Shown: positions 3,189 through 50,218 of the stretch, in pieces
Numbering within the stretch: position 1 is the stretch's first letter
Layout of the letters: the number at the start of each line of letters is the position of its first letter
Source of the DNA: Escherichia coli
Lineage (GTDB): Bacteria > Pseudomonadota > Gammaproteobacteria > Enterobacterales > Enterobacteriaceae
Reading direction: 5' to 3' (one strand)
Length of the DNA: 64,000 bases
NCBI RefSeq assembly: GCF_003334335.1
Contig: NZ_QOWQ01000004.1
Notes under the pieces: model-generated
Database searches by the model: none
Told to the model about the DNA's origin: nothing
What the model saw: the letters and a program-made list of their open reading frames with translations, nothing else
Made by a program: the position numbers and the translations under genes

Positions 3189-4147
3189 TCGCTAATCCAT
3201 GCCTGACGTTGTGCCGCCACTTCGGCTGGCGTGAACTCCAACGTGGTTGCGGGTTTGGTCAATTTTTCAAAACCGGCAGGCAGCGTGACGTTTGCCACCG
3301 GATACATCCAGTTGCCGGTTGGGATCGCATTCTGGAAAGCCGGAGAAACCATAAACTGGAGGAATTTTTGCGCCAGCTCCGGCTGCTTGCTGGCAGCGGT
3401 GCGGGCGGCGACTTCCACTTGCAGATAGTGACCTTCGCTGAAGTTCGCGGCGGCGTAGTTATCTTTCTTCTCTTCGAGAATGTGATAAGCCGGAGAGGTG
3501 GTGTAACTCAGTACCAGATCGCTTTCACCTTTTAAAAACAGGCCGTAGGCTTCGCTCCAGCCTTTGGTGACCGTGACCGTTTTCTTCGCCAGTTTCTGCC
3601 AGGCTTGTGGGGCGTCATCGCCATAGACTTTTTGCATCCATAGCAACAGACCCAGCCCCGGTGTACTGGTGCGCGGATCCTGATAAATCACCCGCCAGTT
3701 TTGATCGCTCTCAACCAGTTCTTTCAGGCTTTGTGGCGGGTTTTTCAGTTTGTTCTTGTCATAAACGAAGGCGAAGTAGCCATAATCAAACGGTACGAAA
3801 GTGTCATTATTCCAGCCGCCGGGAACGTTAACGGCATCCGCTGCCACACCGCTTTTGGCAAACAGTCCGGTTTTACTGGCGGCGTCTAACAGGTTGTTAT
3901 CCAGCCCCAGCACCACATCGGCTTTACTGTTTTTGCCTTCCATCCGTAGACGGTTGAGAAGCGAAACGCCATCTTCCAGCGCCACCAGTTTCAGTTCGCA
4001 ATTACAGTCGGCTTCAAAGGCTTTTTTAACCACCGGACCAGGCCCCCAGTCGGCGGCGAAGGAATCGTAGGTATAAACAGTCAGAACGGGTTTAGCGAAA
4101 ACGGGCGCTGTGCACAGCAACAGCAGGGGCAGACATTTTTTTAACAC
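3164..4147 (-). CDS. thiB: periplasmic thiamine-binding protein
   Basis: ORF trimmed to MLKKCLPLLLLCTAPVFA signal peptide; periplasmic binding protein fold; first gene of thiBPQ. Confidence 0.9.
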   Translation of the reverse strand: MLKKCLPLLLLCTAPVFAKPVLTVYTYDSFAADWGPGPVVKKAFEADCNCELKLVALEDGVSLLNRLRMEGKNSKADVVLGLDNNLLDAASKTGLFAKSGVAADAVNVPGGWNNDTFVPFDYGYFAFVYDKNKLKNPPQSLKELVESDQNWRVIYQDPRTSTPGLGLLLWMQKVYGDDAPQAWQKLAKKTVTVTKGWSEAYGLFLKGESDLVLSYTTSPAYHILEEKKDNYAAANFSEGHYLQVEVAARTAASKQPELAQKFLQFMVSPAFQNAIPTGNWMYPVANVTLPAGFEKLTKPATTLEFTPAEVAAQRQAWISEWQRAVSR

Positions 4148-12196: not shown

Positions 12197-12244
12197 GGTT
12201 TGGGTCCTTGTCTCTTTTAGAGCGCCTCGCTTCGGGCATAAAAA

Positions 12245-12275
12245 AACCCGCGCAATGGCGCGGGTTTTTTGTTTG
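12245..12275 (-). terminator. leu operon attenuator (intrinsic terminator)
   Basis: Minus strand AAACCCGCGCCATTGCGCGGGTTTTTTT: GC stem-loop plus T-run immediately downstream of leuL. Confidence 0.7.
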
Positions 12276-39651: not shown

Positions 39652-39672
39652 AAGCTAACTGTTGAAGTAAAA

Positions 39673-39696
39673 GGCGCAGGATTCTGCGCCTTTTTT
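39673..39696 (+). terminator. candidate intrinsic terminator/attenuating hairpin between secA and mutT
   Basis: GGCGCAGGATTCTGCGCC followed by TTTTTT. Confidence 0.55.
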
Positions 39697-42110: not shown

Positions 42111-43154
42111 ATGCGTATTGAAGAAGATCTGAAGTTAGGTTTTAAAGACGTTCTCATCCGCCCTAAACGCTCCACTCTTAAAAGCCGTTCCGATGTTGAA
42201 CTGGAACGTCAATTCACCTTCAAACATTCAGGTCAGAGCTGGTCCGGCGTGCCGATTATCGCCGCAAATATGGACACCGTAGGCACATTTTCTATGGCCT
42301 CTGCGCTGGCTTCTTTTGATATTTTGACTGCTGTGCATAAACACTATTCTGTCGAAGAGTGGCAAGCGTTTATCAACAATTCTTCCGCTGATGTGCTGAA
42401 ACATGTGATGGTTTCTACCGGTACGTCTGATGCGGATTTCGAAAAAACTAAACAGATTCTCGACCTGAACCCGGCATTAAACTTCGTTTGTATTGACGTG
42501 GCGAATGGTTATTCCGAACACTTCGTGCAGTTCGTTGCGAAAGCGCGTGAAGCGTGGCCGACCAAAACCATTTGTGCTGGTAACGTAGTGACTGGTGAAA
42601 TGTGTGAGGAGCTTATCCTCTCAGGTGCCGATATCGTTAAAGTTGGCATTGGCCCAGGTTCTGTTTGTACAACTCGCGTCAAAACAGGCGTCGGTTATCC
42701 GCAACTTTCTGCGGTAATCGAATGTGCCGATGCTGCGCACGGTCTGGGCGGAATGATCGTCAGCGATGGTGGCTGCACCACGCCGGGCGATGTGGCGAAA
42801 GCCTTTGGCGGCGGTGCCGATTTCGTCATGCTTGGCGGCATGCTGGCGGGCCACGAAGAGAGCGGCGGTCGCATCGTTGAGGAGAACGGCGAGAAATTTA
42901 TGCTGTTCTACGGCATGAGCTCCGAGTCTGCGATGAAACGTCACGTTGGCGGCGTTGCGGAATATCGCGCAGCAGAAGGTAAAACCGTTAAGCTGCCGCT
43001 GCGAGGCCCGGTTGAAAATACCGCGCGAGATATTTTGGGCGGCCTGCGTTCAGCTTGTACATACGTTGGGGCTTCACGCCTGAAAGAGCTGACCAAGCGC
43101 ACCACGTTTATTCGTGTGCAGGAACAAGAAAACCGCATCTTCAACAACCTGTAA
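42111..43154 (+). CDS. guaC: GMP reductase
   Basis: 347-aa ORF; IMPDH/GMP reductase TIM barrel with catalytic Cys loop ([11 protein letters not shown]). Confidence 0.95.
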
Positions 43155-43160
43155 TCTCCC

Positions 43161-43190
43161 AACGCTGGCGTGGAGCAACACGCCAGCGTT
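43161..43190. terminator. perfect 12-bp-stem hairpin between convergent guaC and hofC
   Basis: AACGCTGGCGTG-GAGCAA-CACGCCAGCGTT; no T-run, so classification as terminator is tentative. Confidence 0.4.
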
Positions 43191-44391
43191 ATCCCATCCC
43201 ACTCATCGCATCGCCTAAATGGAAAATTGGCAGATACATTGCCACCACCAGCGTACCAATAATTCCTCCCGTTATGATCAGCAACGCCGGTTCCAGTAAG
43301 GCTGCGAGGTTATCCGCCAGCGCCATTGTGTTTTCCCGATGATGATGGGCGAGGTTGTCTAACATGAGATCCAGAGAGCCGGATGCCTCTCCTGTTCTCA
43401 CTAATTGCAAACAGAGCGGGCTAAACTCACCGGTATTTTTTAGCGCCAGCCAGATGGGTTGACCGTTACTGATATCGTGCTGGATTTGTGTCAGAAGTTG
43501 CACCCAGTACGGGCAGCGCATTGTTTCTCTGACGCTCTCTACGCCCTGTAAAAAAGTAATGCCTGCACTTTGTGTCAGCGCCAGAATCGTAAAGATCTGC
43601 GTGAGTTTTTGTCCCCGCATCAGTGAACCCATAATCGGGATGCGTAACAGCAATTTCTGCCGCACTATAAGCCAGGTCGGTCGGCGCATCAGCAACTTAT
43701 TGGCTATCGCCAGCAGAAAGCCGAACAACACCAGCAGCCAGCTCCATTCGCCACTAAAGTCTGCCAGCGTCATGATCCCCTGCGTTAGTGCCGGTAGTGG
43801 GGTGTTGAAGGTCTTATAGATAGCGGCAAACTCCGGCAGAACAAAATGCAGCATTGCCACAACCACCATGATTGCCATCGCTAAAATGATGATGGGATAA
43901 CGTAACGCTGATTTCACTTTGTCGGTCAACTGACGCTGGGCTTTTTGCTGACGCGCCAGTTCAAAGCAGCATTCATCCAGCTTACCGGTCAGTTCACCCG
44001 TGCGGATCATCGCCTGATAGAGCGGCGGAAATACCTCTGACCAGGGTAATAAGGCATTGGAAAAAGCAATGCCCTGTTCGAGATCGTGCGCCAGCGATTG
44101 CAGCAACGCTTGCCATTGCTTACTGGGATGCTGTTCCGCCAGCAGAGCCAGCCCTTCAGAAAGCGTTAACCCTGCTTTGAGTAGCGTCGCCAGTTGATGA
44201 ATGACTTCCGCGCTTTTATCTCCTCGCCACTGCGCAGAATTGATGGCGATTCGCTTCAGGCTTAGTGGGGTAACCATCTGTTGCTGTAGTGCCATAAGCA
44301 GTAAAGTACGGCTCTCTGCCCATAGCATCCCATCTTGCGCATTGCCGTCGCCGGTTATGCCATGCCAGCGCCAGAGTTGCTTACTCGCCAT
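43189..44391 (-). CDS. hofC: type IV pilus assembly inner-membrane platform protein (GspF/PilC family)
   Basis: 400-aa ORF, duplicated GspF domain with TM helices; downstream of hofB. Confidence 0.85.
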   Translation of the reverse strand: MASKQLWRWHGITGDGNAQDGMLWAESRTLLLMALQQQMVTPLSLKRIAINSAQWRGDKSAEVIHQLATLLKAGLTLSEGLALLAEQHPSKQWQALLQSLAHDLEQGIAFSNALLPWSEVFPPLYQAMIRTGELTGKLDECCFELARQQKAQRQLTDKVKSALRYPIIILAMAIMVVVAMLHFVLPEFAAIYKTFNTPLPALTQGIMTLADFSGEWSWLLVLFGFLLAIANKLLMRRPTWLIVRQKLLLRIPIMGSLMRGQKLTQIFTILALTQSAGITFLQGVESVRETMRCPYWVQLLTQIQHDISNGQPIWLALKNTGEFSPLCLQLVRTGEASGSLDLMLDNLAHHHRENTMALADNLAALLEPALLIITGGIIGTLVVAMYLPIFHLGDAMSGMG

Positions 44392-47399: not shown

Positions 47400-47951
47400 A
47401 TGTTGTTAGAACAGGGGTGGCTGGTTGGCGCGCGCCGCGTTCCCTCACCACATTACGATTGCCGCCCGGATGACGAAACACCCACCCTGCTGGTGGTGCA
47501 CAATATTAGCCTGCCGCCAGGCGAGTTTGGCGGTCCGTGGATCGACGCATTATTCACTGGAACTATTGATCCGCAGGCACATCCTTTCTTTGCTGAGATC
47601 GCCCATTTGCGCGTCTCCGCTCACTGTTTGATTCGCCGTGATGGTGAAATAGTCCAGTATGTTCCTTTCGATAAACGTGCATGGCATGCGGGAGTCTCTC
47701 AGTATCAGGGGCGCGAACGCTGCAATGATTTTTCTATTGGGATTGAGCTTGAAGGCACCGATACGCTGGCGTATACCGATGCGCAGTATCAACAGCTTGC
47801 GGCGGTTACGCGGGCACTGATTGATTGCTATCCGGATATCGCTAAAAACATGACGGGCCATTGTGATATTGCGCCGGATCGGAAAACCGATCCCGGTCCT
47901 GCATTTGATTGGGCACGGTTTCGTGTGCTGGTCAGCAAGGAGACAACATGA
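47400..47951 (+). CDS. ampD: 1,6-anhydro-N-acetylmuramyl-L-alanine amidase
   Basis: 183-aa ORF; amidase_2/PGRP fold. Confidence 0.9.
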
Positions 47952-48802
47952 CGCTATTTACAACCTTACTGGTGTTAATTTTCGAGCGCCTGTTTAAGTT
48001 GGGCGAGCACTGGCAGCTTGATCATCGTCTTGAAGCGTTCTTTCGGCGGGTGAAACATTTTTCTCTCGGGCGCACGTTAGGCATGACCATTATTGCGATG
48101 GGCGTGACTTTTTTACTGTTACGCGCATTGCAGGGAGTATTGTTCAACGTTCCCACGCTACTGGTGTGGCTGCTGATTGGTTTGCTGTGTATTGGCGCAG
48201 GTAAAGTTCGTCTTCATTATCATGCTTATCTGACAGCTGCTTCACGTAATGATAGCCATGCCCGTGCCACGATGGCTGGCGAACTCACCATGATTCACGG
48301 CGTCCCGGCAGGCTGCGACGAACGTGAGTATTTGCGTGAGCTGCAAAATGCATTGCTGTGGATTAACTTTCGTTTTTATCTTGCACCGCTGTTCTGGCTG
48401 ATTGTGGGGGGAACCTGGGGACCCGTTACGCTGATGGGGTATGCGTTTTTGCGTGCATGGCAATACTGGCTGGCGCGATATCAGACGCCGCATCATCGTT
48501 TACAGTCCGGCATTGATGCCGTGCTTCATGTACTGGATTGGGTGCCGGTTCGTCTTGCGGGTGTGGTATATGCCTTGATCGGTCATGGTGAGAAAGCGTT
48601 ACCGGCCTGGTTTGCTTCGCTGGGTGATTTCCATACTTCGCAGTATCAGGTGTTAACGCGTCTGGCGCAGTTCTCTCTGGCGCGTGAACCGCATGTCGAT
48701 AAGGTGGAGACGCCGAAGGCAGCGGTTTCAATGGCGAAGAAAACCTCGTTCGTAGTCGTGGTGGTGATTGCACTACTGACGATTTACGGGGCGTTGGTGT
48801 AA
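47948..48802 (+). CDS. ampE: inner membrane protein AmpE
   Basis: ORF 47909..48802 trimmed to [15 protein letters not shown]; ATGA overlap with ampD. Confidence 0.85.
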
Positions 48803-48809
48803 AGATTAT

Positions 48810-48835
48810 TGCCCTCACCCTGTACGGGTGAGGGC
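48810..48835. terminator. bidirectional hairpin between convergent ampE and aroP
   Basis: GCCCTCACCC-TGTACG-GGTGAGGGC. Confidence 0.5.
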
Positions 48836-48844
48836 GTAGAGAGA

Positions 48845-50218
48845 TTAATGCGCTTTTACGGCTTTGGCGGTTTTCTCTTTAAACAGATAGCCGATACCTA
48901 ACACGATCAGCCATACCGGGATCAGGTATACCGAAATCGCCATTCCTGGGGTCATCAGCATAATCACCAGTACCGCCGCCATAAACAGCAGGCAGATCCA
49001 GTTACCCAGCGGATAAAGCAGAGCAGGGAAGCGAGTTACCACGCCTTGTTCCTGCTTGGCGCGACGGAATTTCATATGCGCCAGGCTAATCATCGCCCAG
49101 TTGATTACCAGTGCAGATACCACCAGCGCCATTAACAGTCCGAAAGCGGACTCTGGGGCAAGGTAGTTAATCAGTACGCACAACGCCGTTACCAGTGCAG
49201 ACACCAGAATGGTATTTACTGGTACACCACGTTTATCGACAGACGCCAGCGCTTTTGGCGCATTACCCTGTTGTGCCAGACCAAACAGCATACGGCTGTT
49301 GCAATATACGCAGCTGTTGTACACGGAGAGCGCCGCAGTCAGTACCACGATGTTCAGCGCATTCGCCACAAAGGTATCGCCTAACTCGTGGAAGATCAGC
49401 ACAAACGGACTGGTATCGGCGGTAACGCGGGTCCACGGCATCAGTGAGAGCAGAACGGCTAACGAACCAATATAGAAAATCAGGATGCGGTAGATAACCT
49501 GGTTAGTTGCTTTCGGTATACTTTGCTCCGGGTTATCAGCTTCTGCTGCGGTGATCCCCACCAGTTCCAGACCACCGAACGAGAACATGATAATCGCCAT
49601 CATCATCACCAGCCCGGTGAAGCCGTGCGGCAGGAAACCACCCTGATCCCACAGGTTGCTAACGGTCGCCTGCGGGCCGCCGTTGCCACTGAATAGCAGC
49701 CAGCCGCCGAAGATGATCATCGCTACCACCGCGATAACTTTGATAATGGCAAACCAGAACTCCATCTCGCCAAACACTTTAACGTTGGTCAGGTTGATGG
49801 CGTTAATCACCACAAAGAATACGGCGGCAGAAACCCAGGTGGGGATTTCCGGATACCAGAACTGAATGTATTTACCCACGGCAGTCAGCTCAGCCATGGC
49901 AACTAAAACGTACAGTACCCAGTAGTTCCAGCCAGAGGCGAAACCGGCAAAACTGCCCCAGTATTTATAAGCAAAGTGGCTAAAGGAGCCTGCGACAGGT
50001 TCTTCGACCACCATTTCACCCAGCTGACGCATGATCAGAAAGGCGATAAAACCAGCAATGGCGTAACCCAGGATAATCCCTGGCCCTGCGGACTGTATTA
50101 CGGAGGCGCTACCCAGGAATAACCCGGTCCCTATCGCGCCACCCAGCGCGATAAGCTGAATATGGCGGTTTTTAAGGCCGCGCTTTAGCTGCTCGCCGTG
50201 CTGTTGACCTTCCATCAT
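48845..50218 (-). CDS. aroP: aromatic amino acid permease (APC family)
   Basis: 457-aa ORF with 12 TM helices. Confidence 0.9.
   Translation of the reverse strand: MMEGQQHGEQLKRGLKNRHIQLIALGGAIGTGLFLGSASVIQSAGPGIILGYAIAGFIAFLIMRQLGEMVVEEPVAGSFSHFAYKYWGSFAGFASGWNYWVLYVLVAMAELTAVGKYIQFWYPEIPTWVSAAVFFVVINAINLTNVKVFGEMEFWFAIIKVIAVVAMIIFGGWLLFSGNGGPQATVSNLWDQGGFLPHGFTGLVMMMAIIMFSFGGLELVGITAAEADNPEQSIPKATNQVIYRILIFYIGSLAVLLSLMPWTRVTADTSPFVLIFHELGDTFVANALNIVVLTAALSVYNSCVYCNSRMLFGLAQQGNAPKALASVDKRGVPVNTILVSALVTALCVLINYLAPESAFGLLMALVVSALVINWAMISLAHMKFRRAKQEQGVVTRFPALLYPLGNWICLLFMAAVLVIMLMTPGMAISVYLIPVWLIVLGIGYLFKEKTAKAVKAH

Follow-up and report, generated by a model that had tools for sequence, protein, structure and literature searches.

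How does the guaC transcript of Escherichia coli end when only 34 nt (43155-43188) separate the gene from the convergent hofC, which we take to be the last gene of the ppdD-hofB-hofC operon, and what part in that ending falls to the perfect inverted repeat that occupies the spacer? Positions here and below are those of the window, meaning the whole 64-kb stretch of DNA that was analysed. The two coding sequences were placed from the list of open reading frames together with the RefSeq annotation of identical E. coli DNA: guaC closes with TAA at 43152-43154, and the hofC stop codon lies at 43189-43191 (TTA on the plus strand). The layout between them is as follows.

42111-43154, plus strand: guaC coding sequence (GMP reductase)
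43161-43172: left arm of the hairpin, AACGCTGGCGTG, the 5' arm in guaC-sense RNA
43173-43178: loop of the hairpin, GAGCAA
43179-43190: right arm of the hairpin, CACGCCAGCGTT
43189-44391, minus strand: hofC coding sequence

The 12-bp stem and 6-nt loop described in the earlier note are present as claimed: AACGCTGGCGTG-GAGCAA-CACGCCAGCGTT, at 43161-43190, is an inverted repeat of 12 bp with 100% complementarity. The overlap with the hofC stop codon also holds, since the final 2 nt of the right arm are the first two bases of that codon. To say that the repeat exactly fills the spacer was slightly generous, as it starts 6 nt past the guaC stop, although it does occupy 28 of the 34 nt. In our view, this palindrome is probably transcribed into an RNA stem-loop that sets the 3' end of the guaC mRNA and protects it.

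The repeat folds strongly as RNA. A free-energy estimate, which the earlier note had proposed as a check, gives a stable fold in both senses, at -23.1 kcal/mol for the guaC-sense RNA (z = -5.9) and -21.6 kcal/mol for the hofC-sense RNA; at a z of about -6, none of 200 shuffles folded equally well. The window contains two perfect stems of at least 12 bp, whereas 60 dinucleotide-preserving shuffles averaged 0.07, which rules out a chance palindrome; the second such stem is a canonical A6/T6 terminator.

The stem-loop at guaC is not followed by what a canonical intrinsic terminator would need. Past the stem, the tail is ATCCCATC on the plus strand and GGGAGATT on the minus strand, neither of them a T-run, and the guaC-sense RNA, with its tail AUCCCAUC and upstream flank UCUCCC, thus has neither a U-rich tail nor an upstream A-tract. 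A T-run terminator scan, for which an intrinsic terminator was a GC-rich hairpin followed within 0-2 nt by a U-tract with at least 5 U in 8 nt, did not call the hairpin, and a promoter and terminator scan near it returned nothing exceeding shuffle expectation. Of the properties that define canonical intrinsic terminators, the hairpin is present, and the U-tract and Rho independence are both absent. The earlier judgement that the lack of a T-run on either strand speaks against a canonical intrinsic terminator is therefore borne out by both the tails and the scan.

Published 3'-end maps, in contrast to a refuting outcome in which the ends lay elsewhere, place the guaC terminus at this hairpin. 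The Term-seq data of Adams et al. 2021 (eLife, PMC7815308, Supplementary file 1) contain a 3' end at MG1655 114526(+), labelled there as the primary end of guaC, antisense to hofC, and listed in only one of three conditions. The flanking 61-nt string in the same file, AACAACCTGTAATCTCCCAACGCTGGCGTGGAGCAACACGCCAGCGTTATCCCATCCCACT, fixes the offset (window = MG1655 - 71333), and the end falls at 43193, 3 nt beyond the stem. Independent evidence comes from the TRS study (Nat Commun 2023, PMC10687069, Supplementary Data 2-4), which gives primary guaC termini at 114528 and 114529 and draws exactly this fold, at -23.9 kcal/mol. Measured from the stop at 43154 to the mapped ends at 43193-43196, the guaC 3' UTR is 39-42 nt long. 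For hofC, no 3' end is listed in either the Adams or the TRS tables; the gene may simply be unexpressed. In the literature searched, we found nothing of an older description of the guaC terminator (Andrews & Guest 1988), and PMC10100675 carries guaC in gene lists only.

Transcription beyond these ends is limited by Rho. Adams et al. (PMC7815308, Supplementary file 2) report a Rho termination region with its best coordinate at 114530(+), window position 43197, with a Rho score of 4.78 (p = 5.6e-12); coverage upstream/downstream is 82/28 without bicyclomycin and 176/287 with it, and the score, calculated over 800-nt windows, is compatible with some intrinsic release at the UUAU tail. Furthermore, Ojha & Jain 2020 (RNA, PMC7430678) worked with a validated Rho target, the region lying 538-638 nt beyond guaC, with reference to Dar & Sorek 2018, among whose Rho targets they count guaC, and their qRT-PCR showed a dramatic increase of RNA from this region in a rho-ts strain. 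The suggestion in the earlier note of a transcript-stabilising or Rho-dependent end is thus supported on the guaC side by ends at +3 to +6 from the stem, by the Rho score and by the rise in the rho-ts strain. The note's extension of this end to both convergent transcripts stays conjectural for hofC; sequence variation favours the guaC-sense fold. The features on the downstream side are these.

43193-43196, plus strand: published steady-state 3' ends of guaC mRNA (Term-seq and TRS), 3-6 nt past the stem
43191-43270, plus strand: candidate rut, a C-rich, G-poor stretch of guaC read-through RNA antisense to the last hofC codons, with a putative function in Rho loading
43692-43792, plus strand: read-through RNA antisense to hofC, the qRT-PCR amplicon given by the primers of Ojha & Jain 2020 as located in the window

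The base composition directly past the stem is unusual. The first 78 nt (43191-43268) contain 35% C and 13% G, a C/G ratio of 2.7; among all 78-nt segments of the 64-kb stretch, both strands counted, this ranks at the 99.5th-99.8th percentile.

This combination of features closely resembles a class described by Dar & Sorek 2018 (NAR, PMC6061677), who found that Rho-dependent E. coli transcripts end precisely past stable stem-loops without U-tracts, that such steady-state 3' ends are made by PNPase and RNase II trimming, and that the sequence just downstream of the stem-loops is richer in C than in G. The guaC hairpin is stable, lacks both a U-tract and an upstream A-tract, has its 3' end a few nucleotides downstream and C in excess of G directly beyond, and gives read-through that depends on bicyclomycin or the rho-ts allele, this last point being taken from published data. 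It therefore has each testable defining feature of the Dar & Sorek protective 3' stem-loops. We see no essential difference from the class, except that the guaC hairpin is unusually perfect (12/12 bp) and is squeezed into a 34-nt convergent spacer, where it touches both stop codons.

On this model, RNA polymerase transcribing guaC would not be stopped efficiently at the hairpin, because no U-tract follows, and would run on into the antisense strand of hofC. The antisense RNA would be untranslated and would open with the C-rich, G-poor stretch at 43191-43270, a putative rut on the basis of its sequence, where Rho would load, to terminate transcription some hundred or more nucleotides downstream. 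The 3'-to-5' exonucleases, which in the published model are PNPase and RNase II, would then trim the tail back until they stalled at the 12-bp stem, leaving the precise end 3-6 nt past it, and the stem of the trimmed transcript would cap and stabilise the guaC mRNA. That exonucleases trim the tail here, and that the stem stabilises the guaC mRNA, we infer by analogy with the Dar & Sorek class. The same DNA could provide an equivalent cap for the hofC-sense RNA, though as a secondary role at best.

Comparison across 80 guaC loci from GTDB species genomes indicates that a hairpin is widely retained: one occupies the short guaC/hofC spacer in most of 35 Enterobacterales loci, with compensatory changes. 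Where a convergent hofC is combined with a short spacer (25-45 nt), each spacer holds one GC-rich hairpin abutting both stop codons, a pattern found in about 30 Enterobacteriaceae genera and in some Erwiniaceae and Hafniaceae, with fold energies of roughly -16 to -24 kcal/mol. Twenty-seven Enterobacteriaceae sequences were aligned with MAFFT. Across their 10-bp core helix, 94.8% of cells are paired, and 5 of the 10 pairs show two-sided changes; the covariation score is 0.198 as opposed to 0.125 in shuffled alignments, none of 500 shuffles reaches 0.198, and slid registers score far lower. Furthermore, the spacers of Shimwellia, Mangrovibacter, Erwinia, Pantoea and Edwardsiella contain hairpins of unrelated sequence in the same place. 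The alignments thus indicate that compensatory evolution maintains the hairpin across Enterobacteriaceae. The core TGGCGC/GCGCCA is itself conserved in sequence across the family, so part of the apparent conservation of the hairpin may be slow divergence.

In Aeromonas and Vibrio, which have no hofC downstream, guaC has a canonical terminator behind it, a hairpin with a T7 run. From this comparison, the constant feature is the 3'-end hairpin, and the U-tract is what the tight convergent spacer lacks, missing where the tail must encode the C-terminus of HofC.

Other arrangements of the spacer were also seen. The guaC-hofC spacer of Citrobacter youngae CCUG 30791 (L009, about 3545-3650) has grown to 107 nt and contains REP-like palindromes, GCCTGATGGCGC...GTAGGCCTGATAAGGCG, in place of the GCTGGCGC-type hairpin of other Citrobacter. 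In Enterobacter sp. Ag1 (L028), the long convergent open reading frame ends 194 nt from guaC with a C-terminus that is not HofC-like, and the hairpin and the HofC-tail codons still adjoin guaC; this arrangement suggests a frameshifted or truncated hofC.

Alternatively, the hairpin could be a weak, factor-assisted intrinsic terminator, with the stem and the short UUAU tail releasing some polymerases, alone or with NusA/NusG, and Rho only mopping up those that remain. We consider this unlikely. The stem is GC-rich and very stable, it ends in two U, and UUAU spans its base, but there is no T-run, the relevant 8 nt hold at most 3 T, and the T-run scan was negative. The guaC hairpin is part of a canonical terminator in taxa without a convergent hofC; in E. 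coli treated with bicyclomycin, however, coverage downstream (287) exceeds that upstream (176), and therefore little termination remains without Rho. Intrinsic terminators usually release the transcript 7-9 nt past the stem. The mapped 3' ends at +3 to +6 nt are near such a release window, yet the end at +3 nt is closer to the stem than the usual release point.

Variation within E. coli bears on which transcript the hairpin serves. The 190-nt stretch around it is present in a single copy in 5425 of 5426 complete genomes. The exact 30-mer of the hairpin occurs at one place per genome in 3847 genomes (71%), a C43169T variant is carried by 1446 of the 5426 (27%), including O157:H7 (EC4115, L001 position 389), and about 130 genomes have neither form. 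In the guaC-sense RNA, C43169T produces a G·U pair and the stem is kept (-21.2 kcal/mol), whereas in the hofC-sense RNA it produces an A·C mismatch (-16.2 kcal/mol). Separately, in E. coli A24 (L004, NZ_CP028751.1) the 3' end of hofC is short of ~140 bp and the gene is annotated as a pseudogene without its C-terminus; the junction, TTATCCC/GATGATG at about position 716 of that locus, lies directly past the intact hairpin and joins window position ~43196 to ~43339.

A similar asymmetry between strands appears among genera. When the best uninterrupted hairpin was picked independently for each strand at the 35 loci, the guaC-sense fold was stronger by more than 1 kcal/mol in 17 and the hofC-sense fold in 2, and G·U pairs accounted for 23/342 of the guaC-sense pairs and 10/305 of the hofC-sense pairs. 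A Wilcoxon test gave p = 0.001, a figure that ignores phylogenetic non-independence and includes several loci that share one hairpin. Ribosomes would also treat the two sides differently: judging by the known dimensions of the ribosomal mRNA channel, termination on hofC would put the whole 5' arm of the hofC-sense hairpin under the ribosome, and termination on guaC no more than the first few stem pairs. Together, the G·U bias, the asymmetry of the folds, the effect of C43169T and this expected coverage by ribosomes suggest that selection seems to act mainly on the guaC-sense RNA.

A second alternative is a collision-type bidirectional terminator, as modelled by Ju et al. 2019 and Wang et al. 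2022, in which the hairpin pauses polymerases arriving from either direction, and both 3' ends result from head-on and trailing collisions of the polymerases on guaC with those on hofC. The geometry fits, with one hairpin common to a convergent pair across a 34-nt spacer, and the model requires exactly such a stem-loop. However, K-12 in laboratory culture expresses the ppdD-hofBC operon poorly, which would make converging polymerases rare, and the guaC end is nonetheless sharp and Rho-dependent. Moreover, the hofC-sense fold is weakened by the G·U bias and by C43169T, a common allele. The sister hairpin at 48811-48835 (ampE/aroP) does have mapped 3' ends on both strands, but for hofC the Adams and TRS tables list none, and we regard collision at guaC/hofC as improbable.

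The ampE/aroP hairpin, GCCCTCACCC-TGTAC-GGGTGAGGGC at 48811-48835, is likewise perfect and without a T-run. It lies in a 42-nt spacer (48803-48844) between open reading frames at 47909-48802(+) and 48845-50218(-), which published tables assign to ampE and aroP. The aroP 3' ends at 120140/120137(-) correspond to window positions 48807/48804 and the ampE 3' end at 120174(+) to 48841 (PMC7815308, PMC10687069), and a Rho region at 120597(+), antisense to aroP, has a score of 4.0 (PMC7815308). With its perfect, GC-rich 10-bp stem, its convergent spacer and its Rho-dependent antisense read-through, this hairpin is of the same class as that of guaC/hofC, but its use on both strands is documented, whereas for guaC/hofC only the guaC side is.

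Canonical bidirectional terminators, such as the one at 12241-12270 (AAAAAACCCGCGC...GCGCGGGTTTTTT), share with the guaC/hofC element a GC-rich hairpin that a convergent gene pair has in common and that can be read from either strand. They differ in their flanks, since the guaC/hofC hairpin has no A-run and T-run but only AA...TT, and the guaC end is Rho-dependent while that of hofC is undocumented. Elsewhere in the window, perfect hairpins at 12241-12270, 39669-39694 and 58033-58061 are flanked by A-runs and T-runs and, unlike guaC/hofC, look like canonical two-sided intrinsic terminators; a perfect 11-bp hairpin at 63423-63450 has no such flanks.

A more elaborate possibility, which we rate as a long shot, is that the hairpin is a translation-gated, asymmetric 3' module of two genes, touching both stop codons. 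If such a module existed, a ribosome that terminates on hofC would melt the whole 5' arm of the hofC-sense hairpin and one that terminates on guaC would open the first few stem pairs only, so that guaC mRNA would be capped stably and hofC mRNA only while untranslated. The stability of the pilus-operon mRNA, or polymerase collisions, would then be coupled to translation, and C43169T would tune the hofC side and leave guaC untouched.

Least probable of all, and very improbable in itself, is an element acting as DNA, such as the site of a dimeric protein or a cruciform, or else a repeated extragenic copy of REP/BIME type: the dyad symmetry is perfect about a 6-bp centre and the TGGCGC/GCGCCA core is conserved in sequence among Enterobacteriaceae, but the hairpin is kept in distant genera with unrelated sequence, G·U-type changes are tolerated more on one strand than on the other, a mark of RNA rather than of DNA or protein binding, and a mapped RNA end lies at the hairpin base. 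A sequence-specific protein operator is ruled out by the covariation and by the unrelated hairpins of distant genera. REP and BIME elements do resemble the guaC/hofC hairpin, being extragenic palindromes that halt 3' exonucleases past genes, in many cases with Rho termination further on, but the latter is unique in the genome, off the REP consensus and not mobile. The arm sequence has no other occurrence within the 64-kb window, and a search of 42800-43600 against Rfam, with E values up to 10 accepted, returned only sub-threshold chance matches (for example symR, 17 bits against a gathering score of 61). Because it is single-copy in E. coli genomes, at one locus in the window and without an Rfam family, the hairpin is a unique, locus-specific element, and a REP/BIME-type repeat is ruled out.

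The RNA stem-loop at the guaC 3' end, our preferred reading, is an element already known, since its 3' end and Rho dependence are tabulated in the literature: it is of an ordinary kind, and this instance stands in published tables as data. The comparative conservation and the bias towards the guaC strand are small additions, and the importance of the element is slight beyond good annotation. It is useful as a natural control for a Rho-dependent 3' end, a purpose for which the region downstream of guaC already serves. For the biology of E. coli, the guaC/hofC hairpin is a clean, well-documented case of a gene that ends without room for a U-tract.
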